Positions 838 through 25,705 of a stretch of DNA of 64,000 bases are shown in pieces (position 1 is the first letter of the stretch; the number at the start of each line of letters is the position of its first letter). Both the position numbers and the translations under genes were made by a program. The stretch spans positions 455 to 64,454 of the forward strand of contig JACKFW010000001.1 of the NCBI GenBank assembly GCA_020632265.1, read 5' to 3'. This DNA is from Pseudomonadales bacterium. GTDB taxonomy: Bacteria; Patescibacteriota; Microgenomatia; UBA1400; PJMF01. Under the pieces are notes generated by a model. That model did not search any database, was not told the origin of the DNA, and saw only the letters and a list, made by a program, of their open reading frames with translations.

Positions 838-1086
838 TTACTTGGCTTTGATAATAGCTTTTTTAATTTTTTCTTTATCAGGAGAAAAACCAACCATAGC
901 AGTCTTATTATTTACTGCTAATACTGGACTACTCATTGCTCCTAGCTCAATAATTCTGCTAGTACCTTCAACGCCAGTTAGATACTCAAGCTCTATGTGA
1001 CCACTCATTTTTGAAGTGACTTCTTGAGTAATGTCAAATAGTTTTTTACAAGTAGCGCACCCCGAGCCTAAAACTTGTACTTTCAT
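838..1086 (-). CDS. Small thioredoxin-fold redox-active disulfide protein (thioredoxin family protein, TIGR00412-like)
   Basis: 82 aa starting MKVQVLGSGCATCKK, with a CxxC motif. It is the usual operon partner of ArsR and COG0701 permeases. Confidence 0.7.
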   Translation of the reverse strand: MKVQVLGSGCATCKKLFDITQEVTSKMSGHIELEYLTGVEGTSRIIELGAMSSPVLAVNNKTAMVGFSPDKEKIKKAIIKAK

Positions 1087-1409
1087 TTTTCCTCCTTACT
1101 ACTCAATAGTTTGAGTAATTTGATAACTTTTTTACCCTTTTTAGAAAGGGAATATGTTACTTGTCGTCCAGATCTTTCAAACTCAACCAAAGATAATTCC
1201 TTGAGGGCAATCAAGTGGTGAGAAACCAGACTTTGAGACACTGCTAAATGATCCACTAAGTCATTGACTGGATGATCTCCTGAGTTCAAGACACAAAGTA
1301 TTTGCAATCTGTTTTTATCAGAAAGTAGTTTGATCAGAGAAAGTTGAGACAGTATTTGCTCACTTTCTTCTGTTTGATTGTCACAACATTTATATGAATA
1401 CATATTCAT
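1083..1409 (-). CDS. ArsR/SmtB family transcriptional regulator
   Basis: 108 aa with a wHTH region (LQILCVLNSGDHPVNDLVDHLAVSQSLVSHHLIALKELSLVEFERSGRQVTYSL). It has a 4-nt overlap with the downstream thioredoxin-like gene. Confidence 0.8.
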   Translation of the reverse strand: MNMYSYKCCDNQTEESEQILSQLSLIKLLSDKNRLQILCVLNSGDHPVNDLVDHLAVSQSLVSHHLIALKELSLVEFERSGRQVTYSLSKKGKKVIKLLKLLSSKEEK

Positions 1410-1480
1410 ATATTATACACAAAAAATGATATTTTAATAGTCAATAATAATATGCTGAAAAGTATTGATACATCAATATT

Positions 1481-1494
1481 GTGACCCCACGGGG
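1481..1494 (-). repeat. Partial copy of the tRNA-Glu 3' end (gtgaccccacgggg), distal att-like repeat
   Basis: It matches the 3' acceptor/T-arm end of tRNA-Glu (1852-1865) for 14-16 nt. It is preceded by a GC-rich GAGCGA-rich module. Confidence 0.6.
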
Positions 1495-1701
1495 AAGCTA
1501 CGACTCCTTCGTTTCGCTCAGTCGCATGCACTATCCTGGCTCGCTACACTCTCGTTAGCTCGCCATGCACCCCAGGGCACCTTCTCTTGCTTCGCAATTC
1601 ACCTTGTGGCGGAATCCAGCCTCAATTCATTCAGCGAGCGTGCTCTTCCAACTTTAAGATCAAACAAAAAAAAAAGCGTATAAATCCGCTTTTTCTCTCG
1701 T

Positions 1702-1715
1702 GTGACCCCACGGGG
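1702..1715 (-). repeat. Partial copy of the tRNA-Glu 3' end (gtgaccccacgggg), proximal att-like repeat
   Basis: It matches tRNA-Glu 3'-end nucleotides for 16-18 nt. The adjacent sequence ...gagcgagtgaaatgagc... is related to the module at the tRNA-Asp island. Confidence 0.6.
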
Positions 1716-1851
1716 AATCACTACGAGAGTACTTCTCGGGCTCATTTCACTCGCTCGAAGTTCGCGAACCAATCAGTACTTTGTGCTGAAGTTAAATCAG
1801 CGTTGAGATAAAATAATAAAAAAGAACCATAAATGGCTCTATTTTATTATG

Positions 1852-1923
1852 TGACCCCACGGGGAATCGAACCCCGGCTGCCAGGATGAAAACCTGGTGT
1901 CCTAACCGCTAGACGATGGGGCC
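1852..1923 (-). tRNA. tRNA-Glu (anticodon UUC)
   Basis: The reverse complement folds as a cloverleaf: acceptor GGCCCCA/TGGGGTC, D-arm GTCT-AGCGGTTA-GGAC, anticodon stem CCAGG/CCTGG with loop TTTTCAT, T-arm CGGGG-TTCGATT-CCCCG, and discriminator A. Confidence 0.85.
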
Positions 1924-4536: not shown

Positions 4537-7500
4537 TTATTTTAATATATTGGCAATTTTCTTTTCTAATTCTGGGCTCCAATTCACTCCGTAAGGTAAC
4601 AACATCTTTTGAGGTTTTGAGCCATTTGGGATAAGCACTATTACGCTTTGGGAACCTTGTTGAGATTTAAGTAAATCTCCTAATTTTTTAAGTGTTTCTT
4701 TACTTGTTTTTCTGGGAACAAATATTTCTTTATGGATCGAAGATCCTTCATGAAATAAGTCATCTTCATTTGGGACGTTTATGGTATCAACTAGTAATTG
4801 TAGTTCCCCATCTCTTTCATCTACCTTGGCTTTTATCATGATGACTGCATTGTCATGAATAATGTTTGAATATTTTTCAAATGTTTTGGGAAATATTACA
4901 ATGTCAATTGAACCAGTATCGTCTTCAAGCTTTGCAAATGCCATATTTTTACCCATTTTTTTGGTAGTAATATTACGCACGTTGGTTAGTAGTCCTCCAA
5001 ACTGAAACACTTTGTCTTTATGAATGCTTTCATCTAAATCCTCTATCTTTTTATTTGCACTCTTTGAAACTGCAGTTAGTTGGTGAGCTAAAGGATGATC
5101 TGTTAAATAAAGACCAAGTAATTCTTTCTCAAATGAGAGTAGTTCTTGTTGTGGATATTCTGGAAGTTTTGGAAAAGTATCTTCTAGAGTATCGTCTACC
5201 GAAGTCACGTCATTAAAAAGAGAATCTTGTCCTTCAATTTCTGATTGAAGTTGAGATGCAGTTGTTCTAATTTTCTCAAGTCCTTCAAGCATACTTGATC
5301 GATTTCCAAATTTGTCCATCACACCAACTTTGATTAAAGTTTCGAGAGTAGTTTTGTTTACTTTTCTACTATCAGTTTTGTGAATAAATTGAGTCAGTGA
5401 GGAAAATGTTTTTACTTCTTTTCTTGTTTCTAAGATATTTTCGATTGCCTTTGAGCCGATGTGTTTAATAGCATTAAAACCAAATCTAATAGCCAAACCT
5501 TCCAATGAATCTTTATCTTTTTCAATAATGAAATCATCCGAAGATTTATTTAAATCAGGAGGATAAATTTTGATTCCCATTTTTTTTGAGGTTTCAATTG
5601 CTTGAGCAATTTTAATATCTCTATTCATAGAATGGGAAGCTGACTCGACACTCATAAGAGCTGTCATATACTCCACAGGATAGTTGGCTTTAAGATATGC
5701 GGTTTGGTAGGAAATCATCGCATAACTAGCTGCATGTGCTTTGTTGAATCCGTAATTGGCAAAAGCTTCAATAAAGCCCCAAACCTTTTCGGCAACAGCT
5801 TTTTTATAACCTTTGATTACTGACTGATCAATAAATCTTCTTTTGTTTTCATCTAAAAGCTTTTTTTTCTTTTTACCGATTGCTCGACGTAAAATATCTG
5901 CTTCTCCAAGGGTATAGCCAGCCATAAGATTAGCAATTTCGAGAATCTGCTCCTGGTAAACCATGACCCCATATGTTTCTTTTAAAATCGGTTTTAGTGA
6001 TTCATGAGGATAGTGAATAGACTTAGGATTATGTTTTCCTTCAATGAAGGTTGGAATTAGATCCATAGGTCCAGGACGATAAAGAGCAACCATAGCAGTA
6101 ATGTCTGAAAATAGGTTTGGTTTAAGTGTTCTAGCAACTCTTCTCATTCCTGCAGATTCAAGTTGAAAAACCCCAAAAGTATCACCCGATGATAAAAGTT
6201 TATAAGTCTTTTTATCATTTAGTGGTAATTTATCGATATCAATATCAACATTCTTATTGACTTTAATCAATTGAAGCGCGGTATTTATAGTGGTTAAGTT
6301 TCTTAAACCTAAAAAATCAAATTTCAAAAGCCCAATTGCGTTATCGTCAATATTACAGTCAAGAGCATACATGTCATATTGAGTGATTGTTTTTCCAGAT
6401 TTTGAATCTTTTTGAATTGCAACATAATCCGGTAAAGGCTTGTCAGTAATGATAATGGCAGCCGCGTGCACTGACGAATGCCTGATACTACCCTCGACTT
6501 TCATTGCTAAATCAATTAGTTTTTTAAATTTTGGTTGCTTATAATATTCGGCTAATTCTGGAACTGTTTCAATTGCTTGTTTAAGTGATGTTTTTTTTGC
6601 TGGAAGGTTAGGAATTAATTTTGCAATTTTGTCAGGATCTTCGTAAGGCATGCCTAGAACTCTGCCAATGTCTCTAATTGAAACTCGAGCTTCCATTTTT
6701 CCGAATGTAATCACATGAGCAACGTGATCGTCTCCATATTTTTGAGCTACATAGTTGATAACTTGATCTCTTTTGGTGTCAGCAAAATCTAGATCAATGT
6801 CAGGAGGTGTGGGTCGCTGTGGATTTAAGAAACGCTCAAAAGCAAGTCCGTGCTTTAATGGATCAATGGTTGTAATTCCAATACTAAATGATACCAATGA
6901 TCCTGCCGCTGACCCTCTTCCCGGTCCAACTGTAATGCCATTTTCTTTTGACCAGTTAACAAAGTCTTGAGTAATTAAAAAATACGCAGCGTAGCCTTTG
7001 TCATTAATAATTTTTAGTTCATAATCGAGTCGTTCTTTAATTTCTGGAGTTAATTTACCAAGTTTATCTTTTGCACCTTTGTATGACATTTTTTGGAGAG
7101 CAGTGGCTAGCGTCTCACCTTTGGGAATTGGGTATTCAGGAAAAATTAGTTGTCCTGTGGGAATTATTAAATTACATTCATCAGCTATTTTTACTGTGTT
7201 TTCAATTGCATCAGGATAATCTTTGAACAAATCAATCATTTCTTCACTAGATCTTAAATAGAAATCGGGAGAGTTTAGCATGGTCATGCGTTTGTCATCA
7301 GAAATTAATTTTCTAGTTTGGATGCAAAGTAATGCATCTTGGGCAATTGCATCATTTTTTTCAACATAATGCACATCATTAGTTGCAACTATCGGAATAT
7401 CGAGTTTTCTGGCCATTTCAACTTGGAGTTTGGTTAGACTAGATAATTCTTTGATTGAAGGATGAACTTGAATTTCAATGTAAAATCTATTTGGAAATTT

Positions 7501-8046
7501 AGTTTTAAATAGCCTGAATTTTTTTTCTGCTTCTTCAATTTTACCATCCATAAGTAGTTTATTAAAAATGCTACTCATACATCCACTTGTACAGATAATT
7601 CCTTTTGAATATTTAAATAAAGTCTCTTCATCAATGCGTGGTTTGTAAGAAAAACCTTCAAAATTAGCAATTGAAACTAACCGATTGATATTTTGATATC
7701 CTGTAAAATTTTTTGCCAATAGGGTGAGATGAAACTGATCGGAACCCAATCTGATTTGTTTATCTTTTCTAGATTTTTTAGCCATGTAGATTTCGACGCC
7801 AACGATCGGTTTAATACCGTTTTTATTACATTCGTTGTAAAAATGGAGTGCACCATACATTGCTCCATGGTCTGTTATTGCTAGAGCATGTTGGCGATGT
7901 TCTTTGGCACTGGACATTAAGTCGGGAAGTTTAGACAGACCGTCTAATAGAGAATATTCAGTGTGTACATGAAGATGTACAAATTTTCCCTTTGGAAGTT
8001 GTTTTAATTGTTTTGTGTCAGCCATATCTAGTAGATATGGTAGCAT
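4537..8046 (-). CDS. dnaE: DNA polymerase III alpha subunit
   Basis: 1169 aa. It has the PHP domain (HLHVHTEYSLLDG), polymerase core motifs and an OB-fold tail. Confidence 0.95.
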   Translation of the reverse strand: MLPYLLDMADTKQLKQLPKGKFVHLHVHTEYSLLDGLSKLPDLMSSAKEHRQHALAITDHGAMYGALHFYNECNKNGIKPIVGVEIYMAKKSRKDKQIRLGSDQFHLTLLAKNFTGYQNINRLVSIANFEGFSYKPRIDEETLFKYSKGIICTSGCMSSIFNKLLMDGKIEEAEKKFRLFKTKFPNRFYIEIQVHPSIKELSSLTKLQVEMARKLDIPIVATNDVHYVEKNDAIAQDALLCIQTRKLISDDKRMTMLNSPDFYLRSSEEMIDLFKDYPDAIENTVKIADECNLIIPTGQLIFPEYPIPKGETLATALQKMSYKGAKDKLGKLTPEIKERLDYELKIINDKGYAAYFLITQDFVNWSKENGITVGPGRGSAAGSLVSFSIGITTIDPLKHGLAFERFLNPQRPTPPDIDLDFADTKRDQVINYVAQKYGDDHVAHVITFGKMEARVSIRDIGRVLGMPYEDPDKIAKLIPNLPAKKTSLKQAIETVPELAEYYKQPKFKKLIDLAMKVEGSIRHSSVHAAAIIITDKPLPDYVAIQKDSKSGKTITQYDMYALDCNIDDNAIGLLKFDFLGLRNLTTINTALQLIKVNKNVDIDIDKLPLNDKKTYKLLSSGDTFGVFQLESAGMRRVARTLKPNLFSDITAMVALYRPGPMDLIPTFIEGKHNPKSIHYPHESLKPILKETYGVMVYQEQILEIANLMAGYTLGEADILRRAIGKKKKKLLDENKRRFIDQSVIKGYKKAVAEKVWGFIEAFANYGFNKAHAASYAMISYQTAYLKANYPVEYMTALMSVESASHSMNRDIKIAQAIETSKKMGIKIYPPDLNKSSDDFIIEKDKDSLEGLAIRFGFNAIKHIGSKAIENILETRKEVKTFSSLTQFIHKTDSRKVNKTTLETLIKVGVMDKFGNRSSMLEGLEKIRTTASQLQSEIEGQDSLFNDVTSVDDTLEDTFPKLPEYPQQELLSFEKELLGLYLTDHPLAHQLTAVSKSANKKIEDLDESIHKDKVFQFGGLLTNVRNITTKKMGKNMAFAKLEDDTGSIDIVIFPKTFEKYSNIIHDNAVIMIKAKVDERDGELQLLVDTINVPNEDDLFHEGSSIHKEIFVPRKTSKETLKKLGDLLKSQQGSQSVIVLIPNGSKPQKMLLPYGVNWSPELEKKIANILK

Positions 8047-8076
8047 ATTTTTATTTGATTTGAGGATGTGGAAAGT

Positions 8077-9426
8077 TTATTTATTAAGTTCTTGAATTAT
8101 TAGCGTTGATAATAAATTGGCGTCTACTTTTTTGCCAATCAATCTTGCAGTTTGGCCTATGAAAAATCCAAGAACTTTTGTTTCACCAGTTTGAAATTTT
8201 TTAACAGCATCTGAATTTTGTGAGAGTACAATATTTATTTTTTTTAGGATTTCATCTTGGCTTACATCGTCCAATTGAAATAATGATTTAAATGTTGTTA
8301 TTATATTGCTTGCTTTATTTTCACGTGAAATGTCAATTTTCTTATTAACAATCGCACTTGCAAGCTGGTTCGGTGTTAAAGAATCATTAATTAATAAATT
8401 GAATGATTCCTCAATTAAATTAGCTGATTGGATATCAGTTATTAATTGCGCGGAATAGCGCTCTTCTACCTTATATTCTTCAAACCATCTACTAGCTATA
8501 TTTGCAGGCAACTCTGGAAGTGATTGTTCAATGAAATCAACATTTTCACGTGAAAATCTAATTGGAGGAAGATCTGGGTCTGGGAAATATCGATAGTCTT
8601 CAGCGTCTTCTTTGGAGCGTTGTGAGAACGTCATAGATTTATTTGAATCCCATCCTCTTGTTTCTTGGACTGGTATTTCATCATTGTCTAAAATTTTTGC
8701 TTGCCTTATCATTTCGAAAGATATTGCTTGTTCGGCAAATTTAAAAGAGTTGATATTTTTAACCTCAACTTTATAATTTGGTAAATTTTCTTGATCAATT
8801 TTAGCAAGTGAAATATTGGCTTCCAATCTCATTCCGCCTTGATCCATATCGCAGTCCGCAACTTCTAAATATCTAAGAATTTGACGTATCTTTTTTCCAT
8901 ATTCCTTTGCTTGTTCTGGTGAATAAATTTCAGGTTCAGTAACGATTTCTATCAAAGGAACACCACTTCTATTAAAATCAATTAAACTAACCTTTTTGCC
9001 ATTTATGACTTTATGTAATAGTTTTCCAGTGTCTTCTTCAAGATGAATTCTTGTGATTTTAACTGGGCCGTATGAAGTTTCGAGAACACCATCAAAGCAA
9101 AATGGTATATCATATTGACTGATTTGATAAGCCTTTGGCAAATCTGGATAAAAGTAATTCTTTCGATCAAATTTGGAAAATAAGTTAATTTTACATTTTA
9201 AAGCCAGGCCAACTTTAATAGTCCATTCTATGGCTTTTTTGTTGGCTGTGGGTAGACCACCGGGCATTCCTAAACAGACTGGACATGTATAAATATTTGG
9301 TTCCTTAGCTCCGAAAGGATCATTTTTACAACCACAAAACATTTTTGAGTCAGTCTTCAATTCTGCGTGAATTTCTATCCCGCAAATGAGCTGGTATTCG
9401 TTTTTGTTTGTTTTTATTGTTTTCAT
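8077..9426 (-). CDS. gatB: Asp-tRNA(Asn)/Glu-tRNA(Gln) amidotransferase subunit B
   Basis: 449 aa. The N-terminus (GIEIHAELKTDSKMFCGC) and the operon order with gatA and gatC support the call. Confidence 0.9.
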   Translation of the reverse strand: MKTIKTNKNEYQLICGIEIHAELKTDSKMFCGCKNDPFGAKEPNIYTCPVCLGMPGGLPTANKKAIEWTIKVGLALKCKINLFSKFDRKNYFYPDLPKAYQISQYDIPFCFDGVLETSYGPVKITRIHLEEDTGKLLHKVINGKKVSLIDFNRSGVPLIEIVTEPEIYSPEQAKEYGKKIRQILRYLEVADCDMDQGGMRLEANISLAKIDQENLPNYKVEVKNINSFKFAEQAISFEMIRQAKILDNDEIPVQETRGWDSNKSMTFSQRSKEDAEDYRYFPDPDLPPIRFSRENVDFIEQSLPELPANIASRWFEEYKVEERYSAQLITDIQSANLIEESFNLLINDSLTPNQLASAIVNKKIDISRENKASNIITTFKSLFQLDDVSQDEILKKINIVLSQNSDAVKKFQTGETKVLGFFIGQTARLIGKKVDANLLSTLIIQELNK

Positions 9427-12745: not shown

Positions 12746-12842
12746 AAATCATACTACAAATATTACATTCTTTCTAGATGAATTTATTAATTACTTCTTG
12801 GTAAAACCCGAAGATTAAAGTATAATTAAAGTTTGATAAAGT

Positions 12843-12918
12843 GGGCCCGTGGTGTAGTGGTTAACATGTCTCCCTGTCACGGAGAAGATCGTCGGTTCGA
12901 ACCCGATCGGGCTCGCCA
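12843..12918 (+). tRNA. tRNA-Asp (anticodon GUC), CCA encoded
   Basis: Cloverleaf: acceptor GGGCCCG/CGGGCTC, anticodon stem-loop CTCC-CTGTCAC-GGAG, T-arm GTCGG-TTCGAAC-CCGAT, then GCCA. Confidence 0.9.
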
Positions 12919-12929
12919 ATATAAAAAAA

Positions 12930-12954
12930 TAAGCCAAATAAGGCTTATTTTTTT
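12930..12954 (+). terminator. Rho-independent terminator after tRNA-Asp (hairpin taagcc/ggctta plus T-run)
   Basis: aaaaaaataagccaaataaggcttattttttt has an A-run before and a T-run after the hairpin, so it could act on either strand. Confidence 0.55.
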
Positions 12955-12962
12955 ATATTGTT

Positions 12963-13097
12963 GAGTTCAAATTGTAAGCGAAGACTAAATTTGAAAAATT
13001 TAGAGTTCGCGACGGAGAGTGATGAGCGGGAGCGAAGAACCCTCCTAGTGCAAGTGAGCGAGTGAAACGAGCGAATCGTGAACCCGATCGGGCTCGC
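12963..13097 (+). repeat. Island repeat module A, ending in a tRNA-Asp 3'-end copy (aacccgatcgggctcgc)
   Basis: gagttcaaattgtaagcgaag...gagttcgcgacgg...gtgagcgagtgaaacgagcgaatcgtgaacccgatcgggctcgc. Its last 17 nt are identical to the tRNA-Asp 3' end. Confidence 0.65.
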
Positions 13098-13151
13098 AAA
13101 TGTTCGTTTGGATTGATTTACAAAGATATTTTTATGATACTGAGTATTTAA

Positions 13152-13802
13152 TTATTTATTATTAGATCTTCTATGTTCTATAATTTTCTTAAGAAGGTTT
13201 TCTAGTACTGTTATAGTATTTTCATCAAAGTGTTGGTCTCTACTTGCTTTTAGTCTCCAACCCAGTGCTTTATATTCATGTTTTTGGGCATGATATTTAA
13301 CTGTTCCACCATTATTTTCTATTTGTTCAAAAGTAGATTTTTTAATATCTGGATCAACTGAATGAACAAACTCTTCAACCCCTTTTGAGAACCAAAATTC
13401 TTTAATTTTTCCTTTAAACTGAAGTTCATTGAAATTATCAATTCTAGTTAGTATAGTTTCCAGACTATACCCTTCAAATTCTTTAAGAAAGCTAGTAGAA
13501 ACTACTATTGTTTGGTATTGAGCTAAATATACAATTGTCATGCCTTTAGGCAGTTGGTCAAAATCTACTCTAGGAAGAGTTATATCTTTGATTTTATTTC
13601 TTTTTAGTAATTCTTTATAGGCATATTGGATACCATTGCAAAAAATTTCCATTAGGTGCCCAGCCTCTTCAGCATTTCCTTTATAGTTTTCTTTTTTTAA
13701 GTGATTTTCCCAAATTTTAAAAGTACTACTTATTGCCTCACGGAAGGATAAACCATTTTGATGCTTTAATCCTTCAGCTGAATTTTGTAGATCTTCAATC
13801 AT
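13152..13802 (-). CDS. Hypothetical protein (island cargo, no recognisable domain)
   Basis: A 216-aa ORF filling the segment between module A and module B. No motif was recognised. Confidence 0.45.
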   Translation of the reverse strand: MIEDLQNSAEGLKHQNGLSFREAISSTFKIWENHLKKENYKGNAEEAGHLMEIFCNGIQYAYKELLKRNKIKDITLPRVDFDQLPKGMTIVYLAQYQTIVVSTSFLKEFEGYSLETILTRIDNFNELQFKGKIKEFWFSKGVEEFVHSVDPDIKKSTFEQIENNGGTVKYHAQKHEYKALGWRLKASRDQHFDENTITVLENLLKKIIEHRRSNNK

Positions 13803-13861
13803 ATATGGAAATTATATCAAAGTATCTATAATTTTCTTGGCAATCAATTAAACAACAGCAG

Positions 13862-14139
13862 ATGAGTACCCCACATCTTCAGGAGTGAACCAGTTTCCCA
13901 TCACCTCCATAATCTTCTCAAGTGAGTTATAAAGTGGTTCCACCCAATTCTGCTCCAGCTCGCATAAATAAAAATCAGACCAAAATGGTCTGTTTTTTTA
14001 TTTATATGAGTTCAAATTGTTAGCGAAGACTAAATTTGAAAAATTTAGAGTTCGCGACGGGAAGGCTGAGCAATAGCGAAGCCACCCTAGTGCAAGTGAG
14101 CGAGTATCACGAGCGAATCGTGAACCCAATCGGGCTTGC
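13862..14139 (+). repeat. Island repeat module B (full-length ~280 bp copy), ending in a degenerate tRNA-Asp 3'-end copy (aacccaatcgggcttgc)
   Basis: It shares ...catcacctccataatcttctcaagtgag...ggttccacccaattc.gctc.ag...hairpin...gagttcaaattgt.agcgaag...ttcgcgacg...gagcgaatcgtgaaccc.atcggg with module C. Confidence 0.65.
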
Positions 14140-14320
14140 CATAAACTAAAAAGACCTATTTATATTTCTTTTTTAACTTAGTTCATAGTATACTTTTAAG
14201 ACTTTTTATTAACTTACACTACTTTAAATATAATTTGAGATCTAAAAACCTCTAGGTCTTTGGGGAGGTAAAGTAAATAATTTTAACTGGTGGGGTTGAA
14301 TAGGCTCTCTAGCTTATTTA

Positions 14321-14590
14321 TTAGCCACCTTTAATCCCATGTCTTCGTGCCCTCTTAGGTTTTCTACTGTTTTCACCCTCATTTTGCTTTTTACCTTTAT
14401 CCAACTCCTTTTTGGGTTTCTGGTTTAGCTCAGCCGCAAGTTCTTCAAGATATCTTAGTTCTGCATCACATAGTTTGCCAGTACCTCCAATTAAACCATT
14501 GTTTCCAAATAAATCAACGCTACTTTCATTTTCAACACTCAACTCAATATTTTCTTTTAATTTTTCAATTGAATAGTTTTGGAAAATCAT
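14321..14590 (-). CDS. Hypothetical small protein with a basic C-terminus
   Basis: An 89-aa ORF. Its GC content is locally higher than the flanks. No known motif. Confidence 0.35.
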   Translation of the reverse strand: MIFQNYSIEKLKENIELSVENESSVDLFGNNGLIGGTGKLCDAELRYLEELAAELNQKPKKELDKGKKQNEGENSRKPKRARRHGIKGG

Positions 14591-14667
14591 TCAACTAATA
14601 CATAAATGAATAATACAATTACGAGATTTTTTGTGATTTTCTAAGTGATTTTAATAAAAAAATATTT

Positions 14668-14832
14668 TTAGTGATTTTTAATTACTGTTTTTCCTCTTTC
14701 ATGACGAATAATTTTTCCTTGTTCTTTAGCTATTTCAACTTCGCTTTGCGTTTTTCTTTTTGTTTTTTTACCGCGATTATTTCTTTCTTTTCCCATTGAA
14801 TAGTATGAGTTTGCTTCTATAGACTTTGACAT
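14668..14832 (-). CDS. Hypothetical small basic protein (54 aa); a pseudogenised paralog lies at 25382-25504
   Basis: Hand translation gives MSKSIEANSYYSMGKERNNRGKKTKRKTQSEVEIAKEQGKIIRHERGKTVIKNH. It is below the ORF-track length cutoff. A conserved promoter-like module lies upstream at 14838-14889. A homologous sequence elsewhere in the window carries in-frame stops. Confidence 0.35.
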   Translation of the reverse strand: MSKSIEANSYYSMGKERNNRGKKTKRKTQSEVEIAKEQGKIIRHERGKTVIKNH

Positions 14833-15057
14833 AAAAATTATTTACTTTCATTCATCAATTATACAATACTGCAATACCTATTATGTTATATTAGCCCAGG
14901 ATTTATAAACTAATCAAGAAGTATTCTTAATTTATTGCCAAATTTACTCTGGGACTAAACAAAAACCACTGCACCCACTCTCTGGTTCGTTTAAGCACCG
15001 GTTGGCGTCGCCAAATATAAAAAATAACCCTATCGGGTTCATTTTTTATATTTGATG

Positions 15058-15135
15058 AACTAGAGCGGAATTGGGTAGAACCGCTGTATGACTCACTTGA
15101 GAGGGTTGTGGAGGTGATGGATAATTGGTTTACAC
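15058..15135 (-). repeat. Inverted partial copy of the island repeat module (first half)
   Basis: The reverse complement ccatcacctccacaaccctctcaagtgagtcatacagcggttctacccaattccgctctag matches modules B and C. It is preceded (14978-15048) by a degenerate tRNA-Asp 3' half and a hairpin aaccctatcgggtt. Confidence 0.55.
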
Positions 15136-15253
15136 CAGAGGAAGTTGGGTTTGTACCTGCAATTACTTAATTTATTACCCACTTAATTATGGAACTTAAC
15201 GACAAACCCCGTCATTATTACAGCGGGGTTTGCACATTTATTGCTTAGTTTTA

Positions 15254-15979
15254 TTACATTTCTTTGAGTTTCTGTTCCAACTTCCGAGCATATTCAAAAT
15301 CACTCTCATCAAGTCCAAGATCAGACTCGAAGTTTCGCCAATGAGCAGTGAAAGCATCATCTGCCAAAAGAAGCCTGAGTTTTTCCTCATCTTCATTCAG
15401 CATTACCTCTGCGATCGCTCGCAGGGCAACAACTGGCCCAACTTCAATTAACTTCTCGGCCAAATCTTTGGCAGACCACTTTTCAATCATGTTGAGTTGA
15501 TCAGGTGGCCACTGATTAGTCATACTTTTATACGGTTTTTTCATTTGAACCTCCAAATTTTTTAATTTGGAAGCAAAGAAATATAAATCATCTAAAACAT
15601 CATCTGAAACACCTAGTCGAGCTAAATCAGAAAGATATCCTGGCATATTTCCAAACATTAAACATCCTGCCTTAAAAGCTGGAATAATTAAGGCTCTCTT
15701 TGCTGTATCTGAGATGGTTATAATACTTGTAGATTCTTGACCTAGTAATCCTAATTCACCTAATGTCAAACCTGTTTCTTCTGACAATGAAACCCATGCT
15801 GGATAGTTATCAGCTTTTTCAGTAGGGGCATATGACTCAACTTTCTGGTATCTAGCTTGTTTATCCCAAATAGATCTTTGAAAAGTCATTGCAATTCGAA
15901 TATCTTTTTGTGTTTTAGGTATTGGGATTATTTCATAACCCATTTTATTAATTTCGGGTCCTGTAGTTTCTGCAAACAT
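15254..15979 (-). CDS. Hypothetical protein (island cargo, compositionally atypical)
   Basis: 241-aa ORF. Its GC content is noticeably higher than neighbouring genes. No recognisable domain. Confidence 0.45.
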   Translation of the reverse strand: MFAETTGPEINKMGYEIIPIPKTQKDIRIAMTFQRSIWDKQARYQKVESYAPTEKADNYPAWVSLSEETGLTLGELGLLGQESTSIITISDTAKRALIIPAFKAGCLMFGNMPGYLSDLARLGVSDDVLDDLYFFASKLKNLEVQMKKPYKSMTNQWPPDQLNMIEKWSAKDLAEKLIEVGPVVALRAIAEVMLNEDEEKLRLLLADDAFTAHWRNFESDLGLDESDFEYARKLEQKLKEM

Positions 15980-16111
15980 AAAATATTAACTTTCTTCATT
16001 TTAAATACCAGTTTAATTATACCATAGAACTTTGTTCAAATACTTCTTATTGAATTTAGATATTTTACTAATGTTCCATAAACAACTTGGAAATAAATTA
16101 TGCTGATATCG

Positions 16112-16401
16112 GCATATGTCCCACATTTTCTGGTGAAAGCCAATTCCTCATCACCTTCAAAATCTTCTCAAGTGAGGTATGTAATGGTTCCACCCAATTC
16201 CGCTCTAGTTAGTATAAATAAAAAACAAACCAAACGGTCTGATTTTTATTTATATGAGTTCAAATTGTGAGCGAAATTCAGACTCCATTCTGAGGTTCGC
16301 GACGAGCAAGTAGTCGAACGAGAGTGAGAAGCCTACTTAGTGCATGTGAGCCATCCTCTAGAAAATAAATAGTAGCGAATCGTGATCCCGATCGGGTTCG
16401 C
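16112..16401 (+). repeat. Island repeat module C (full-length copy), ending in a degenerate tRNA-Asp 3'-end copy (atcccgatcgggttcgc)
   Basis: It shows module-length similarity to 13862-14139, including the internal hairpin and the gagttcaaattg...ttcgcgacg...agcgaatcgtga core. Confidence 0.65.
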
Positions 16402-16531
16402 AAGTAGTATTTAAATTTGATTTATCTGGATATATTTATAATAATGAAGGTTTTTTTTCAAACTAACAACCCATGAGAACGCAGTCGCCCTAGTATTAGA
16501 GTTGTTACTTACATGTTTGTATTTAATTTTG

Positions 16532-18649
16532 TTAATTAAAGTAAACACTAAGAACTCTTTTTATATTCAATGGATGATTATCAGCTAATTGACCTCTAGA
16601 TTTAAAATGTAAAACCAATGATCTAATTCTATCCTTCAAATTAACACCACTTAAATGATAATAATTATGATTTAAAGTTTCGCATAGTTTAATTAAATCT
16701 GCATCTGTATTTAACTTAGATTCTAAATATGCAATATAGTCATTTTCTGAGAAAACTTCATCTAAAGATAAATTATCATTATTGTCTGATTCTAATTTTA
16801 AAATAGCATTTCTTATTTCATCTATAGATTTATCACTTCGTCTCTCAAATAATCTAACGAGCTCTAAAAATTTCATAGGTAGATTACTTCCAGTTACATC
16901 ATCATATCTTATCCCTAAAATCTGAAACAAAGCTCTTGCTTGAGAATCTGTATTTATTTTTTTTGTAAGAGTCCTATAAATCGATTCTTCACCTTTATCT
17001 TGGAATGCTGGTTCAGAACTTCCACCATTGTGTACTACTCCAAAATCAGATAAATCTATATCTGGTCTTAAAGAATTTATAGCTGAAAGTATTTTATTAA
17101 CTCCTAAATGTCTATTACCATAAGCAACTAATTCTCTAGCTTTACCACTAAGATCAACACCTTCCACATCTTCATAATTTATTCCAGCAAATTGAGATAT
17201 CATTTTAAGCTCAGCTAAGTTAACTCGATCTATAAGAATAGTTATCAACTTTATCGTATCATTATGACGTAACTCTGTTGGCAATCCTTCTATTAATTTT
17301 ATTTTTTCACCTTTATTTTGGAATGCTGGTTCAGAACTTCCACCATTGTGTACTACTCCAAAATCAGATAAATCTATATCTGGTCTTAAAGAATTTATAG
17401 CTGAAAGTATTTTATTAACTCCTAAATGTCTATTACCATAAGCAACTAATTCTCTAGCTTTACCACTAAGATCAACACCTTCCACATCTTCATAATTTAT
17501 TCCAGCAAATTGAGATATCATTTTAAGCTCAGCTAAGTTAACTCGATCTATAAGAATAGTTATCAACTTTATCGTATCATTATGACGTAACTCTGTTGGC
17601 AATCCTTCTATTAATTTTATTTTTTCACCTTTATTTTGGAATGCTGGTTCAGAACTTCCACCATTGTGTACTACTCCAAAATCAGATAAATCTATATCTG
17701 GTCTTAAAGAATTTATAGCTGAAAGTATTTTATTAACTCCTAAATGTCTATTACCATAAGCAACTAAATCTCTAGCTTTACCACTAAGATCAACACCTTC
17801 CACATCTTCATAATTTATTCCAGCAAATTGAGATATCATTTTAAGCTCAGCTAAGTTAACTCGATCTATAAGAATAGTTATCAACTTTATCGTATCATTA
17901 TGACGTAACTCTGTTGGCAATCCTTCTATTAATTTTATTTTTTCACCTTTATTTTGGAATGCTGGTTCAGAACTTCCACCATTGTGTACTACTCCAAAAT
18001 CAGATAAATCTATATCTGGTCTTAAAGAATTTATAGCTGAAAGTATTTTATTAACTCCTAAATGTCTATTACCATAAGCAACTAAATCTCTTTCAACAGG
18101 TTTTGTGTATCCTTTTGTTTGTTCTGTGGTTCTTCCAGATTTTGATCTAAGAAATGGACGCTTTTCAAGTATATATCCCCTTAATTGCTCAATTGAATCT
18201 CTGCGATAAAAATCTTTAATAAGTTCGATAATTTTAACTCTTTGTGTTTCACCTCGAATATTAGCCCAATTTAATCCAAAGTATGAGCAAAGTTCTTGCG
18301 TATCACTTACACTAAAGTTAGATGTTAGCCATTTGGCAACATCCAACATGTCAGAATCCATTAATGCATAGTCTTTCCCAGATGAAATAATCCCAGAGTT
18401 ACTTCGTCTATCTACAATAGCATCAATTAAATTCTGGATAATATTCAAATTTTTACATTTTTTAACTAGTGACTTGGTTCTTTCTTCTTGAATATTACCT
18501 TCTAATTGGCTCCATTCAATATTCAGACTAAAACAAATTGAATCAAGCTCGTCCTCAGTAAACAAATTATTAAGAGCTTGAGTTACTTTTTCATTTCTTG
18601 CTTCTTCATCATTTAGACTTTCTTTGTCAAAATGTTTAAATATTCCCAT
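16532..18649 (-). CDS. Tandem-repeat protein built entirely of ~7 death-like / effector-associated-domain (EAD)-type helical adaptor repeats
   Basis: 705 aa. Four near-identical 106-aa repeats (...LKMISQFAGINYEDVEGVDLSGKARELVAYGNRHLGVNKILSAINSLRPDID...) are flanked by divergent copies of the same pattern at the N- and C-terminus. The pattern is G(I/V)xYEDVxG..LxGKARxLVxYxxRxxxxxKILxAIxxLRPD. It resembles the LCFxLGVDYEDLxG..KxxKARELVxYxxRRGRLxELV....RPD adaptor domain that prefixes effectors in bacterial STAND/conflict systems. No enzymatic domain is evident. Confidence 0.55.
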   Translation of the reverse strand: MGIFKHFDKESLNDEEARNEKVTQALNNLFTEDELDSICFSLNIEWSQLEGNIQEERTKSLVKKCKNLNIIQNLIDAIVDRRSNSGIISSGKDYALMDSDMLDVAKWLTSNFSVSDTQELCSYFGLNWANIRGETQRVKIIELIKDFYRRDSIEQLRGYILEKRPFLRSKSGRTTEQTKGYTKPVERDLVAYGNRHLGVNKILSAINSLRPDIDLSDFGVVHNGGSSEPAFQNKGEKIKLIEGLPTELRHNDTIKLITILIDRVNLAELKMISQFAGINYEDVEGVDLSGKARDLVAYGNRHLGVNKILSAINSLRPDIDLSDFGVVHNGGSSEPAFQNKGEKIKLIEGLPTELRHNDTIKLITILIDRVNLAELKMISQFAGINYEDVEGVDLSGKARELVAYGNRHLGVNKILSAINSLRPDIDLSDFGVVHNGGSSEPAFQNKGEKIKLIEGLPTELRHNDTIKLITILIDRVNLAELKMISQFAGINYEDVEGVDLSGKARELVAYGNRHLGVNKILSAINSLRPDIDLSDFGVVHNGGSSEPAFQDKGEESIYRTLTKKINTDSQARALFQILGIRYDDVTGSNLPMKFLELVRLFERRSDKSIDEIRNAILKLESDNNDNLSLDEVFSENDYIAYLESKLNTDADLIKLCETLNHNYYHLSGVNLKDRIRSLVLHFKSRGQLADNHPLNIKRVLSVYFN
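16988..18092 (-). repeat. Near-perfect 318-bp tandem direct repeats (about 3.5 copies) inside the 705-aa gene
   Basis: The same junction point recurs at 17282, 17600 and 17918 (period 318 bp = 106 codons). Copies differ by only a few nucleotides. Confidence 0.85.
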
Positions 18650-18789
18650 AGTTCCTTTTTATAATGTTATAAATTCAATCTATATTTTTATTTTGTACAG
18701 TACAACATTATCTCACTTAGTATCTTATTTTTACAAGTCTTTGTTTTAACACCACCCATTTTGAGGTGAGAGCAGTGACAATCTAGTCA

Positions 18790-18843
18790 TTATTTACTTT
18801 CTTTCATCAATTATACAACAGTACTTAATACCTATTATGTTAT
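18790..18843 (-). promoter_or_regulatory. Duplicated promoter / 5'-leader module (paralog of 14838-14889), upstream of the 705-aa gene
   Basis: ttatttactttc.ttcatcaattatacaa...aatacctattatgttat occurs at both sites. On the minus strand it reads ...ttgtataattgatgaa.gaaagtaaataatg with a TATAAT-like -10 box. Confidence 0.4.
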
Positions 18844-19158
18844 TGTTATAGGCACATACTGTTCGAAAAACTACTTTGTATAAATTGTATAGGTGATAGA
18901 TAATTTAAAGCAATGTGAGGTTGCCTGTTGTTGTACCAATTAAGATACTCAGTTTGTTTAACATGAATAGCAACCAAATCAAGTTTTTAAGAAAAAACTT
19001 GAGCATCTGGTCAAAGTTTTTTTAATTGCTAGTCTATAATTTATTTTAGGCATAATTAGTCTCGATAAACTACATAAATCAAAATCATAATTATACTATC
19101 TAGATAAATACAAATTTTAACCCCTCACGTTTCACGCAACTTCTGCTATACTTTCCAC

Positions 19159-19998
19159 ATGAAAGCACAAAGTGTTCAACTGATTTCAGTTGACTTATTA
19201 CAAACAAATCCTTTTCAACCTCGAGAAAAAATTCATAAAGAAGATCTTGAAGATTTAGTTAAATCCATAAAAGTTCATGGTGTTTTGGAGCCACTAATTG
19301 TAGCTCATACTCCAGCTGGTTATCAAATAATTGCGGGTGAAAGAAGATGGCGAGCATCTCAACTTGCAAAGCTAAATGAAGTCCCAGTTATCATCAAAGA
19401 AACAACTCCAAAGGGTATGTTGGAGATGGCCATAATCGAAAATTTACAAAGAGTAAATTTAACAGCAATTGAAAGAGCTCAGTCATTCCAAAGATTGCAA
19501 AGAAATTTTGATTTAAGTGTTGGTGAAATCGCCGAAAGGATTGGAAAATCCTCGTCATTTATTAGTAATTCCCTTAAATTATTAAACCTTCCAGACGCCA
19601 TTAAAGATGGAATGCTGGGAAAACAAATTACTGAGGGCCATGCAAGAGCTATTTCGGGTATACAAGACTTAAATGCCATGATCCAGGTTTATAAACAAAT
19701 ACTCAAGGAAAATGCCTCAGTTAGAAGAGCTGAAGAACTAGCAAGATTAGCAAAAAGTAAGATTGGTCAAACTAGGATTTTTAAACCCCACTCAGTCATC
19801 TATCAAATAGATGATAAAAAAATTCAAATTTTTGAGAATAAAATCAAAAGATACTTGGGTACAAAAACCAAACTTAAACTAAAAAGAACTGCAAAGCAAA
19901 CACAAATTAGTTTCATTATCAGGGGGGATCTTGAGGAAACTCAAAAAAGCTTAGAAAAAGTGATGAATATGGTTGATGAGGCTCTAAAAAAATCTTAG
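19159..19998 (+). CDS. parB: ParB/Spo0J family partition protein (ParB N-terminal nuclease-like domain plus HTH)
   Basis: 279 aa. It carries the GERRWRA motif and an HTH region (SVGEIAERIGKSSSFISNSLKLLNL). No parA is adjacent. Confidence 0.8.
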   Translation: MKAQSVQLISVDLLQTNPFQPREKIHKEDLEDLVKSIKVHGVLEPLIVAHTPAGYQIIAGERRWRASQLAKLNEVPVIIKETTPKGMLEMAIIENLQRVNLTAIERAQSFQRLQRNFDLSVGEIAERIGKSSSFISNSLKLLNLPDAIKDGMLGKQITEGHARAISGIQDLNAMIQVYKQILKENASVRRAEELARLAKSKIGQTRIFKPHSVIYQIDDKKIQIFENKIKRYLGTKTKLKLKRTAKQTQISFIIRGDLEETQKSLEKVMNMVDEALKKS

Positions 19999-20570
19999 TA
20001 ACTTACATTTTTAATTGGTCCAATTTTATCCATTGGCCAGTATCTAAAAAATGCCTTCCCAACAATTTCTGAACTACTAACAGGACCCCAAACACGAGAA
20101 TCACTTGAATGAGATCGGTTATCGCCTAAAGCAAAATATTCATTAGGACCAATTGTCACAGTTCGTCCTACGATGAATTTTCCTTCAATAGTTTTATAAT
20201 CCTCAGGAAGATAAGTTTCTTCCAATTTTTCATCATTTAAATAGACATTACCATCATGAACGGCTACCCTATCTCCCGGAACTCCAATCACTCGCTTGAT
20301 AAAGTCACAACCTGTTCCAGTAGGACAACCTGCCTCAGGTGGTGCATGAAAAACAATTACATCACCTCTTTGAGGTTCCCCAGTTCTATAACTTACTTTA
20401 TCTGTTAATACATAATCTCCTGAATCAAAGTTCGGGAACATTGACAACCCATTTACTTGATGAGGTTGCATAAAAAATAAATATACGATTAGGAAAAATG
20501 ACAAGCCAATAACTGTGGTTTCAAGAAGATCCAAAAAAAAACTACTGATAGATTTGATAACTCTATTCAT
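19995..20570 (-). CDS. lepB: Signal peptidase I (S26 family)
   Basis: 191 aa with an N-terminal TM and S26 motifs (GLSMFPNF, GDNRSHSSDSRVWGPV). Confidence 0.85.
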   Translation of the reverse strand: MNRVIKSISSFFLDLLETTVIGLSFFLIVYLFFMQPHQVNGLSMFPNFDSGDYVLTDKVSYRTGEPQRGDVIVFHAPPEAGCPTGTGCDFIKRVIGVPGDRVAVHDGNVYLNDEKLEETYLPEDYKTIEGKFIVGRTVTIGPNEYFALGDNRSHSSDSRVWGPVSSSEIVGKAFFRYWPMDKIGPIKNVSY

Positions 20571-20617
20571 ATAAAGGGATTATGCATTTTCAAGACATTA
20601 GTTTCAAGGACTAAATA

Positions 20618-21868
20618 TTGCCATCAAATTGTAGTAAGATAGAGACTATGGGTTATACAAAAAATACAATATCTGGCTTCAGCTGGCAAACACTTCTAAA
20701 AATTGCTGTGACACTCATAACTCTTGGTAAAATAATGGTAATTGCTAGAATCCTGAATCCTCAAGATTTTGGTTTATTTGCTTTGATTGCTATTGCGTTA
20801 GGTCTTGCGGAAGCCACAACTCAAACAGGAATTAATCTTACAATCCTTCAATCTAAAAAAACTATCGGATATTTTATTAATACCGCTTGGGTAATTGCAA
20901 TCACTAGAGGATTAATTATTGGCATAATCATGGTCGTTATGGGAGTTGGCATGACTCGCTACTATAATGAACCCAGACTAAGCATCTTAATTTCAATCGC
21001 AGCTTTCATTCCAATTATTAAAGGATTTATAAATCCAAGTGTGATATTATTTCAAAAAAACCTAGAGTTTTTGAAAGACAGTGTTTTCAAACTCTCACTC
21101 GTAATTATTGAAGCTTTTTTCGCTATCATACTATCAATTTTTTTTAGAGATGTAATTGCCTTAATATTAGCAATGATTACATCAGCATTCTTTGAGGTTC
21201 TTATTTCATTTTGGATATTCAAAGATAAACCAAAGTTTCAATACATATCAAGTAGATCAAAAGAAATTTTTTCCAACGCAAAAGGTTTGACTGTTTCCGC
21301 TGCTCTGTCATACCTAAATGAAAATATAGATGATTTTTTACTTGGAAAAACTATTGGAACTCATAATCTTGGACTTTATCACAATGCATATAGTTTAGGT
21401 CACAAAGCAAATTATGATTTTGCAAAATCAATCAATCATAGTACATTGCCAATTTTCTCAAAAATAACAGAAGATATAAAAAGATTAAAAAGTGCATTTT
21501 TAAAATCCATGACAGCGACTATTTTAATTGTTTTTTCAGTTTCACTTCCATTACTCATAGCACCAAATTTAATTGTAAATTTTGTTTTAGGACAAAAATG
21601 GCTCTCAATTGTCCCAAGTCTCTATTTGTTTGTTTTTGCTGGGATACTTCAAAGTATTACAATTATTTTTTACACACTTTTTTATGCTAAAAAAAGATAT
21701 ACTGCATTAAATTTTCACCTCTTTTTAACAGTCTTAATTCTGATCATTTTAATTAAATATCTTAGTCCCATATCTGGAATTACTGGTGCTGGCCAAGCCC
21801 TGGTAATTAGTAGATTAATTACTTTGCCTATAATATTTTATGAAACATTCAAAATATTTAATAAATAA
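20618..21868 (+). CDS. Wzx-like oligosaccharide/polysaccharide flippase (MOP superfamily)
   Basis: A 416-aa polytopic membrane protein (~12 TM), first gene of a glycan locus. Confidence 0.65.
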   Translation: MPSNCSKIETMGYTKNTISGFSWQTLLKIAVTLITLGKIMVIARILNPQDFGLFALIAIALGLAEATTQTGINLTILQSKKTIGYFINTAWVIAITRGLIIGIIMVVMGVGMTRYYNEPRLSILISIAAFIPIIKGFINPSVILFQKNLEFLKDSVFKLSLVIIEAFFAIILSIFFRDVIALILAMITSAFFEVLISFWIFKDKPKFQYISSRSKEIFSNAKGLTVSAALSYLNENIDDFLLGKTIGTHNLGLYHNAYSLGHKANYDFAKSINHSTLPIFSKITEDIKRLKSAFLKSMTATILIVFSVSLPLLIAPNLIVNFVLGQKWLSIVPSLYLFVFAGILQSITIIFYTLFYAKKRYTALNFHLFLTVLILIILIKYLSPISGITGAGQALVISRLITLPIIFYETFKIFNK

Positions 21869-21885
21869 TAAATGAATCAAATGAT

Positions 21886-23914: not shown

Positions 23915-23951
23915 TAATGATTAAAAAGTTGGGCTTCTATAAATGTGTAGA

Positions 23952-24764: not shown

Positions 24765-24787
24765 AAATCAACTTTTAAACTTTATTG

Positions 24788-24860
24788 AGCCGAAGGTGGG
24801 AGTCGAACCCACGACCTATGGTTTACGATACCAGTGCTCTACCAACTGAGCTACTTCGGC
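24788..24860 (-). tRNA. tRNA-Thr (anticodon CGU)
   Basis: The reverse complement gives GCCGAAG-TA-GCTC-AGTTGGTA-GAGC-A-CTGGT-ATCGTAA-ACCAT-AGGTC-GTGGG-TTCGACT-CCCAC-CTTCGGC-T, a complete cloverleaf. Confidence 0.85.
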
Positions 24861-25381: not shown

Positions 25382-25504
25382 ATGGCTAAAAATAATCGCG
25401 GTTAAAAAACAAAAAGATAAACGCAATTAGATGCTAATATAGCTAAAAGAGATGTAAAAGTTATTCGTCATGAAGAAGGAAAAACAATAATTAAAGATAA
25501 CTAA
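25382..25504 (+). pseudogene. Degraded paralog of the small basic protein gene (14668-14832), with in-frame stop codons
   Basis: atggctaaaaataatcgcggtTAAaaaacaaaaagataaacgc...gttattcgtcatgaagaaggaaaaacaataattaaagataactaa aligns with the intact copy (…aataatcgcggtAAAaaaacaaaaagaaaaacgc…attattcgtcatgaaagaggaaaaacagtaattaaaaatcactaa). At least two stops are visible. Confidence 0.4.
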
Positions 25505-25705
25505 AAATATTTTTTAGATTAAAATCACTTAAAACATCACAAAAAAATCCTAAAGCAAGACAATATTAAAAAATTTCAAAGCTCCCATTTTGAGATTAAA
25601 TGAAAACATTACTATGCACGAAAAGAGATCGATTGGTAGATAGCTTTGACAATTAAAGGAAAATTTATAGACCCAATTTTTTTAACCATAATATCAAGGT
25701 TTGGA

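Follow-up and report, generated by a model that had tools for sequence, protein, structure and literature searches.

The 64-kb window analyzed here, the whole 64,000-nucleotide stretch taken from contig JACKFW010000001.1, carries two small units without genes directly behind a tRNA-Glu(ttc) gene. Each unit, here named GluA (proximal) and GluB (distal), ends in a copy of the 3' end of that tRNA. On sequence likeness, the two are weak, degenerate or divergent members of a family of structured modules that is also represented at the tRNA-Asp(gtc) gene of the same window and at tRNA genes of other genomes. With moderate confidence, we favor the view that GluA and GluB are small, non-autonomous integrative units resembling cis-mobilizable elements (CIMEs), free of cargo, which were added one after another at the tRNA-Glu 3' end through site-specific recombination. 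They may no longer be able to move. The closest homologues of the LemA gene that adjoins tRNA-Asp are named Candidatus Pacebacteria, Microgenomates or Patescibacteria, and thus we take the host to be a bacterium of the candidate phyla radiation (CPR).

Two gene-less units behind tRNA-Glu

The repeated core contains the 16-mer GTGACCCCACGGGGAA (plus strand; the reverse complement of the tRNA-Glu 3' end), with exact matches at 1481, 1702 and 1851. Shuffling gives an expectation of 0.01 occurrences, and none of 100 shuffles reached three. An earlier, sequence-only reading of this DNA had proposed two gene-less units closed by copies of the tRNA-Glu 3' end, and had placed them correctly. It gave the copies a length of 14 to 18 nt; the copies are real, but the identity is slightly longer, reaching 19 nt in the proximal copy and 17 nt in the distal copy. 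The shared core begins at T-loop position 57 or 59 and includes two bases (CA) beyond the discriminator. In the displaced copies the discriminator is followed by this genomic CA and not by the CCA of a mature tRNA, and therefore an origin at the level of DNA is indicated.

In the direction of the tRNA, both units have the same order of parts: a terminator-like hairpin (1840-1823 and 1701-1664), a GC-rich module and the tRNA-end copy (Table 1). The aagcg-N8-cgctt hairpin described earlier is present, with its A-run and T-run; the suggestion that it could terminate transcripts on either strand is arguable, the hairpins having been scored on the tRNA strand only. GC content is 0.42-0.50 across 1401-1900 and 0.26-0.37 in the surroundings, so that the units do stand out as GC-rich against an AT-rich background. 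They are 150-220 bp in size and contain no genes for integration or transfer. The module of GluA includes a 17-mer, GAGCGAGTGAAATGAGC (1740-1756, minus strand), that is also present in the tRNA-Asp modules; the central conserved block and hairpin of the family are missing. The GluB module has lost the first family block. Two open reading frames (ORFs) on the plus strand, 1465-1683 and 1587-1811, fall within the units, as had been noticed before. They are unlikely to be genes because hairpin lengths differ among the clear family members by non-multiples of three, an argument that rests on those members and not on the Glu frames themselves. A coding role for antisense ORFs of the modules was rejected on the same grounds.

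Table 1. Coordinates of features at the tRNA-Glu and tRNA-Asp loci of the window
Feature	Position	Strand	Remarks
tRNA-Glu(ttc)	1851..1923	-	ARAGORN and Rfam (tRNA, 62.6 bits)
Reference copy of the repeated core (last 19 nt of tRNA-Glu)	1850-1868 (plus-strand coordinates)		Includes one base 3' of the gene
GluA start: intrinsic-terminator-like hairpin and T-run, directly after tRNA-Glu	1823..1840	-	7-bp stem
GluA module, truncated family member	1720..1771	-	GGTTCGCGAAC, then GAGCGAGTGAAATGAGC, small hairpin, TAGTGA
First displaced tRNA-Glu 3'-end copy	1701..1719	-	19 nt identical to 1850-1868
GluB start: terminator-like hairpin	1664..1701	-	aagcg-N8-cgctt core, A-run before, T-run after
GluB 5' extension	1573..1663	-	GC-rich, GCGAAGC-type mini-hairpins; from sequence and fold, not aligned to the family model
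GluB module, degenerate family member	1497..1572	-	GGC...GCC hairpin, TAGTGCATGCGA, GAGCGAAACGAAGG hairpin and GTCGTAGC kept
Second displaced tRNA-Glu 3'-end copy	1480..1496	-	17 nt
ArsR-family gene (HTH_5)	1083-1409		Its upstream region lies beyond the second displaced core
tRNA-Asp(gtc), anchor of the second array of the window	12843..12918	+	ARAGORN and Rfam; promoter-like site 12798-12826
Asp1, gene-less: terminator, full module, exact 18-nt tRNA-Asp end copy	12919..13097	+	Covariance model, 89.8 bits
Asp2: terminator, module, tRNA-Asp end copy (2 mismatches)	13964..14139	+	Covariance model, 72.5 bits
Asp3: terminator, module, tRNA-Asp end copy (2 mismatches)	16212..16401	+	Covariance model, 73.6 bits

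A family of structured modules at tRNA genes

Clear members of the family have three invariant blocks, GTTCGCGACGG, CCTAGTGCAWGTGAGC and GCGAATCGTRA, with two hairpins of variable length between them. We aligned 14 distinct clear modules, and the same alignment was used for a covariance model (CM). The first hairpin (P4) is built on a 4-bp base, followed by an A.C mismatch that is nearly invariant, by a second stem (GTG/CAC as a rule) and by an apex of 3 to about 35 nt. Double compensatory changes were identified at two of its pairs: 14:52 occurs as CG in five modules, AU in three and GC in three, and 15:51 as GC in seven and AU in three. Pairing is found in 84.8% of cells, as opposed to 24-41% after the 3' partner columns are slid by one to three positions. 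P5, the second hairpin, is as short as GC-GAA-GC in some modules and reaches a 6-bp stem with an AT-rich loop in others. Although GTTCGCGA and TCGTGAAY, the two outer blocks, are complementary, neither varies, and the outer helix that they would form is without covariation support. The tRNA-sense strand is favored by GNRA-type loops (GGAA, GGGA), tandem G.A pairs and some G.U pairs; on the antisense strand, the conserved A.C of P4 and the C:G/C.A alternation of the outer helix would be G.U. Assignment of a strand from wobble pairs was abandoned as contradictory, each strand having an invariant A.C mismatch.

At orthologous tRNA-Asp loci with flanks of 73-78% identity, the module blocks are invariant and the intervening hairpins are completely different. 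This points to selection on the module. It may be read as a conserved folded attachment arm, presumably recognized by a recombinase, and not as random scar sequence. Within the window, the CM ranks Asp1, Asp3 and Asp2 first (90, 74 and 73 bits), with GluB fourth (1572-1481; 17.3 bits, E ~0.016) and GluA fifth (1771-1702; 12 bits, E ~0.34). Both Glu matches are on the correct strand and in register with the tRNA-end copy. The kinship with the tRNA-Asp modules claimed at the outset is real, if weak.

To extend the family we used the pattern GTTCGCGA-N20-50-TAGTGCAWGTGAGC on species-representative genomes and on metagenome contigs (comparison loci carry L numbers below). The species-representative genomes gave the module in two metagenome-assembled genomes (MAGs), a Candidatus Pacebacteria MAG, in which it follows tRNA-Gly(gcc) and three copies of the tRNA-Gly end occur, and a second MAG, in which it follows tRNA-Ser(gga). 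Among metagenome contigs, which are of Pacebacteria/Microgenomates (CPR) type, there were 16 further true matches. Each module lies behind a complete tRNA, or within an array anchored on one, and the tRNAs are Asp, Glu, Gly, Ser, Gln(ttg) and Gln(ctg). The terminal segment matches the local tRNA in at least 15 independent loci, which generalizes what had been noticed for Glu and Asp, and the search with a check of neighbors found no modules at non-tRNA sites without a tRNA-end copy. The module ends in ...G(C/T)GA(A/G)TCGT(G/A)A, i.e. ...GCGAATCGT(G/A)A, fused to the local tRNA sequence, of which the core takes in everything between T-loop position 57/58 and the discriminator, with one or two bases more. 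Near-identical scaffolds are joined to different tRNA ends in L012 (Gly) and L028 (Ser), and the hairpin of Asp1 recurs in L029. We identified no second tRNA-specific element, as the 5' region of a module pairs with its own core no better than with the cores of other units. A tRNA-like minihelix formed by module and core (mimicking T-arm and acceptor) was rejected because the 5' T-stem strand is constant across tRNAs. The form met most often in the family is the gene-less unit. The earlier argument that units without genes are not ordinary islands holds in this sense, though the Glu copies are degenerate.

The family has no counterpart in the collections searched. Rfam matched only tRNAs (gathering thresholds for the whole window; E<=10 for both loci). 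Three module patterns gave no true module in IMG/VR, where all 69 matches to a 15-mer lacked the flanking blocks, and a distant blastn search of INPHARED phages and PLSDB plasmids gave no module match. The cargo proteins also had no match in IMG/VR. In the second MAG, the module of L016 (reverse-complemented; 51-437) lies near what appears by eye to be a fragment of an IS1595-type transposase, and is preceded by a pseudo-tRNA fragment, not a tRNA.

Modules also close short cassettes. In the L033/L027 array, tRNA-Gln is followed by a gene for a 139-aa protein, module and core, an acetyltransferase-like gene (GNAT, by eye), module and core, a gene for a 496-aa protein, module and core, two more genes and a degenerate fourth module. 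In the related contig L017, a terminator and the second module of L033/L027 come directly after the tRNA, and the unit is thus of the gene-less kind. In L018, a gene-less unit follows the tRNA, and behind it are one gene and a second unit. Arrays of short cassettes with site-closed ends are thus found in L033/L027, in L018 and in the tRNA-Asp island of the window, and the cargo genes have no fixed orientation relative to the module. In the window, Asp2 closes a one-gene cassette (gene 13152-13802) and Asp3 closes a cassette with several small genes. The blocks common to the Asp modules are GTTCGCGACG(G/A), (C/T)TAGTGCAWGTGAGC and GCGAATCGTGA; the two hairpins between them differ in sequence and retain pairing.

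Breakpoints between populations at two loci coincide with the core. In a species with 87% identical LemA, ten contigs have tRNA-Asp, a terminator, one module and a core. Two strain variants of this locus, L103 and L106, share 99.96% identity across 10,970 nt; the shared stretch stops at the final base of the core, after which the sequences are unrelated. L009 and L010, from two other metagenomes, contain GluA and GluB identical to those of the window. Their upstream sequence differs and is joined inside GGGTCAC, and the tRNA is replaced by a diverged pseudo-tRNA-Glu that extends from the anticodon arm to the 3' end (L009 1-230, L010 1-130). We read this junction as the far end of a further element inserted at tRNA-Glu. 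The pseudo-tRNA-Glu is preceded by different cargo, in L009 by the apparent start of a PLD-type nuclease gene (by eye). Two Logan contigs with the exact L19 protein of the window (L001 and L002) end at the same point inside tRNA-Glu, ...ggttaggacaccag, and the other three of L001-L005 stop shortly past the UPF0102 gene. These contig ends suggest a repeat or strain branching at tRNA-Glu.

Several further features of the modules and their surroundings were observed. A conserved 45-nt hairpin insert lies within the tRNA-Gln end copy of two array modules, between T-stem bases (L033 4400-4460 and 6285-6345; L027 5744-5823). In some modules the first hairpin is present two or three times in tandem, with a GTCCGAAGGAC mini-hairpin between the copies. 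Two terminators of L018 (reverse-complemented, with the tRNA on the plus strand; 6805-6840 and 7885-7925) have identical stems and flipped loops (GATAAC-TTTT-GTTATC and GATAAC-AAAA-GTTATC), the pattern expected from inversion by recombination.

In the tRNA-Asp island (12919-19100), the three full modules lie between cassettes of small genes, whose products of 216, 89, 54 and 241 aa have no Pfam match. After the Asp modules comes the gene for a 705-aa protein with an effector-associated domain (EAD7), which holds four 318-nt tandem repeats (16985-18238), three of them 99-100% identical. An open frame of 31-37 codons occurs in three copies, one inverted (13851-13961, minus; 15057-15167, plus; 16110-16208, minus), that adjoin the terminators preceding modules. 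Its consensus is LE.NWVEPLY.SLEK...VM.NWFTPE.VG; substitutions are conservative and coding-like, there is no obvious start codon, and no homologue was found in the comparison loci examined. Beside the inverted copy, in the third Asp cassette, is what looks like the 3' part of a further tRNA (ggttcgtttaagcaccggttggcgtcgcca), with a terminator hairpin behind it (14985-15055). Also present is an inverted duplication, 14627-14782 and 25390-25546 (84.7% over 157 nt), that covers a gene for a small basic protein (14668-14832); one copy is in the Asp island and the other in a gene-poor stretch near tRNA-Thr and a LysM gene. Relative to L103, window positions 19159-24860 (signal peptidase S26 to tRNA-Thr) are inverted, and one end of the inversion is the tRNA-Asp island.

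Proposed integration at tRNA ends and its alternatives

The sequence-only reading had offered either attP sites of tRNA-targeting integrases or a tRNA-templated small-RNA or SINE-like (short interspersed nuclear element-like) unit. The attachment-site half fits best, given the strain breakpoint at the core, the cassette arrays and the recombinase elements at the tRNA-Glu site described below; the other half fits poorly with the CA in place of CCA, the start of the copies in the T-loop, and the lack of a promoter-like site near the modules and of an Rfam match. Under the integrative explanation, the attachment site of a free unit would consist of the structured module, a tRNA copy from T-loop to gene end, and a terminator hairpin. 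Recombination within the shared tRNA segment would insert the unit. The tRNA end and terminator of the incoming element would then complete the tRNA gene, and the original tRNA end would come to lie at the far end of the unit, immediately after the module. Repeated rounds would give tRNA-unit-unit here and tRNA-(gene-module-tRNA end)n in relatives, with the recombinase supplied in trans, or lost. The terminator after each core fits integration because an incoming element must supply it for the tRNA transcription unit.

We looked for recombinases with Pfam in 40 ORFs of the window, including all of at least 100 aa between 24 and 58 kb, and identified none. No Phage_integrase-type protein (tyrosine recombinase) was identified in the window or in array loci with scanned or annotated genes. 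A candidate class is suggested by L125, where the gene order L19, UPF0102, tRNA-Glu is that of the window. Here, a gene for a 511-aa Resolvase/Recombinase protein (large serine recombinase; 7058-8593, minus strand) overlaps tRNA-Glu (7024-7096) by 39 nt. The tRNA-Glu end is identical to that of the window, and sequence identity stops at the same ...GGGGTCACA. In a second related species, a 526-aa homologue is encoded at the same tRNA-Glu place, followed by coupling-ATPase-like and Replic_Relax genes. In L113, a similar large serine recombinase gene overlaps tRNA-Asn (region 14379-16052), and the variant-B island is in part similar to the cluster of genes found ahead of these recombinases. These elements share the attachment region and host clade with the module units, and differ from them in their size (at least 10 kb), in the recombinase gene overlapping the tRNA end and in having no module. 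We infer that module units may be served by a large serine recombinase because site, junction and hosts are the same. The last 39-42 nt of the L125 and L113 recombinase genes are antisense to the tRNA 3' end (Glu, Asn), so that the C-terminus of the protein (...VTPRGIEPRFSG) is encoded by the tRNA complement.

Several points weigh against the integrative explanation. Neither the units and arrays nor the 64-kb window as a whole yielded a recombinase, and as the large serine recombinase elements lack the module, the link between enzyme and module is circumstantial. A free module-core-terminator form (circular, plasmid or phage) was not found in IMG/VR or in the phage and plasmid collections. The Glu copies reach only 12-17 bits in the CM, and the covariation comes from 14 sequences and essentially two base pairs. 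Finally, the arm sites of classical integrases are protein-binding repeats, in which covarying hairpins are not expected, and the module may do something else.

One such role, which we consider unlikely, is that of a gene for a small structured RNA whose end is programmable and through which a nuclease or recombinase encoded in trans homes to tRNA genes. Read on the sense strand, the RNA would be a scaffold with a 3' tRNA-end segment of 16-19 nt, similar to the omega-RNA of TnpB, with GGTTCG of the T-loop as target-adjacent motif; on the antisense strand, it would have a 5' segment complementary to the tRNA end, then the scaffold, then a terminator, and a terminator does follow in that reading. 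The folded, GC-rich sequence within AT-rich DNA and the P4 covariation are consistent with an RNA, as are the GNRA-type loops and tandem G.A pairs of the sense strand and, on the antisense strand, the change of the P4 A.C to G.U. Near-identical scaffolds on different tRNA ends (L012 and L028; Asp1 and L029) would reflect easy retargeting. The likeness to omega-RNAs and the right ends of IS200/IS605 elements extends to a structured scaffold of about 100-150 nt with some 16-20 nt identical to the target directly behind it, to a conserved motif on the 5' side of the target and to the existence of gene-less copies. The geometry is indeed guide-like, with a junction constantly after GGTTC(G) of the T-loop and a match of 16-19 nt, but site-specific recombination gives the same geometry. 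However, scans around Glu, Asp1-2 and Asp3 found no promoter-like site adjoining the modules, whichever strand was read, and in GluA the space for an antisense promoter is taken up, since the GluB terminator abuts the GluA core. An antisense -10/-35 pair seen by eye in L018, 7 nt from the core, was dropped because other loci lack it. Rfam gave no match up to E<=10, genes for TnpB, IscB or Cas proteins were not found near any module copy among the loci examined, nor tnpA at module loci, and the hairpins on the left side are unrelated, ordinary terminators. The wobble evidence conflicts between strands, the 45-nt insertion lies inside the would-be guide in two conserved array members, and two further points against an RNA gene are the lack of a fixed cargo orientation and the place of the modules as cassette boundaries in arrays. 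IS200/IS605 transposition, moreover, makes no target duplication, and the module units show one.

We also doubt, somewhat more strongly, that the modules are folded single-stranded DNA sites of an integron-like, tRNA-anchored cassette system with the recombinase encoded elsewhere in the genome. The folded module would be recognized as IntI recognizes attC, one strand would be exchanged with the T-loop and 3' end of the tRNA, and gene-less units would be empty cassettes. This would be a more sharply defined form of the integrative explanation. The hosts are Patescibacteria, which commonly take up single-stranded DNA. As in integrase-less attC clusters, one- or two-gene cassettes form arrays that are closed by a structured site without a recombinase nearby, and as in attC sites there are conserved ends (with complementary outer blocks, GTTCGCGA and TCGTGAAY), hairpins of variable length and conserved mismatches, the latter on both strands. 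The attC consensus (R''/R' RYYYAAC...GTTRRRY) is not present, however: the module starts with GTTCGCGA, ends with TCGTGAAY and has two internal hairpins (as read from sequence, with no attC model). The outer helix has the opposite polarity and, being invariant, is without covariation support, and the fold is branched and not a single hairpin. Unlike integrons, the module arrays are anchored on a tRNA instead of attI, with an anchor copy of 16-19 nt per site, and no IntI or other integron integrase, and no tyrosine recombinase, was seen in the window or in the scanned or annotated array loci.

Quite improbable, in our view, is that the units are inert scars, that is, decayed right ends (pseudo-tRNA-like attP arms) of deleted integrative elements that resemble each other through recent common descent. 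GluA and GluB are indeed degenerate or truncated against the family model. In its 3' half, the module looks like a tRNA body from which a part has been deleted (TAGTG is shared with the D-loop; AATCGT/GAACCC as compared with GATCGT-CGGTTC-GAACCC of tRNA-Asp), and pseudo-tRNA fragments occur at comparable positions in L009/L010, L016, L028 and L029. Partial tRNAs and remnants are also known from tycheposons (bioRxiv 10.1101/2020.12.28.424599) and CIMEs (PMC5704250). Nevertheless, three blocks of 11-16 nt are invariant although hairpins, flanks and tRNA targets differ, and the stems show compensatory changes; a neutral scar would not be expected to behave in this way. Both of the orthologous tRNA-Asp loci with 73-78% DNA identity, moreover, keep an intact module.

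Models of casposon-like target duplication, IS200/IS605 and IS91 were rejected for lack of terminal inverted repeats, matching left and right hairpins and enzymes, and a tRNA-derived SINE-like retroelement was rejected because the units hold no more of the tRNA than its last 17-19 nt, with genomic CA and not CCA, and ARAGORN finds no tRNA-like fold in the units.

Relation to known elements and implications

The integrative explanation places the units closest to established systems of tandem accretion at tRNA sites. Such accretion is known for the ICESt1/ICESt3 family, in which CIMEs are att-flanked and have no recombination genes of their own (PMC5704250). The likeness lies in att repeats at the tRNA 3' end, the absence of integration genes and tandem stacking with other elements (PMC5704250). 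CIMEs differ in being decayed integrative and conjugative elements (ICEs) or integrative and mobilizable elements (IMEs) of Firmicutes at the kilobase scale, whereas units of the Glu and Asp type have 150-220 bp and are commonly free of cargo. The module family, in addition, shares a structured module across several tRNA targets in CPR bacteria, and no parent ICE or IME was identified. Tycheposons of Prochlorococcus are tRNA-seeded islands with partial tRNAs and remnants (bioRxiv 10.1101/2020.12.28.424599). They resemble the module loci in their streamlined genomes, successive integrations at one tRNA and scattered partial tRNAs. They are defined, however, by their own recombinase and replication modules, and module units encode nothing; also, no conserved folded arm has been described for tycheposons.

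The module family is apparently undescribed. In Rfam, in the phage, plasmid and viral collections and in full-text literature we found no description of a structured arm of 100-150 nt common to at least six tRNA targets, of gene-less units of 150-220 bp as the commonest form of such a family, or of recombinase-less cassette arrays in CPR bacteria.

Bacteria of the CPR (Patescibacteria) have tiny genomes and few recognized mobile elements, and their exchange of accessory and defense genes is poorly understood. The module family marks variable spots beside tRNA genes. Cassette cargo in relatives includes, for example, an AbiEii-type toxin module, an acetyltransferase, ATP-grasp/methyltransferase, a deaminase and EAD7 proteins, with no recombinase in cis. 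The three invariant blocks provide a simple probe for islands in fragmented CPR assemblies. A conserved structured arm with interchangeable tRNA ends would be a new design of attachment site, and the target of recombination would be reprogrammable should the arm be read in folded form, as DNA or as RNA. A bolder proposal, which we hold to be rather doubtful, is that the module is the recognition scaffold (folded DNA or RNA) of a programmable system, fused to an exchangeable tRNA-end segment of 16-19 nt. If this is true, a single trans-acting enzyme would dock cassettes into many tRNA genes at the universal T-loop, and CPR bacteria would possess an integron-like, tRNA-anchored cassette platform that is specific to them.

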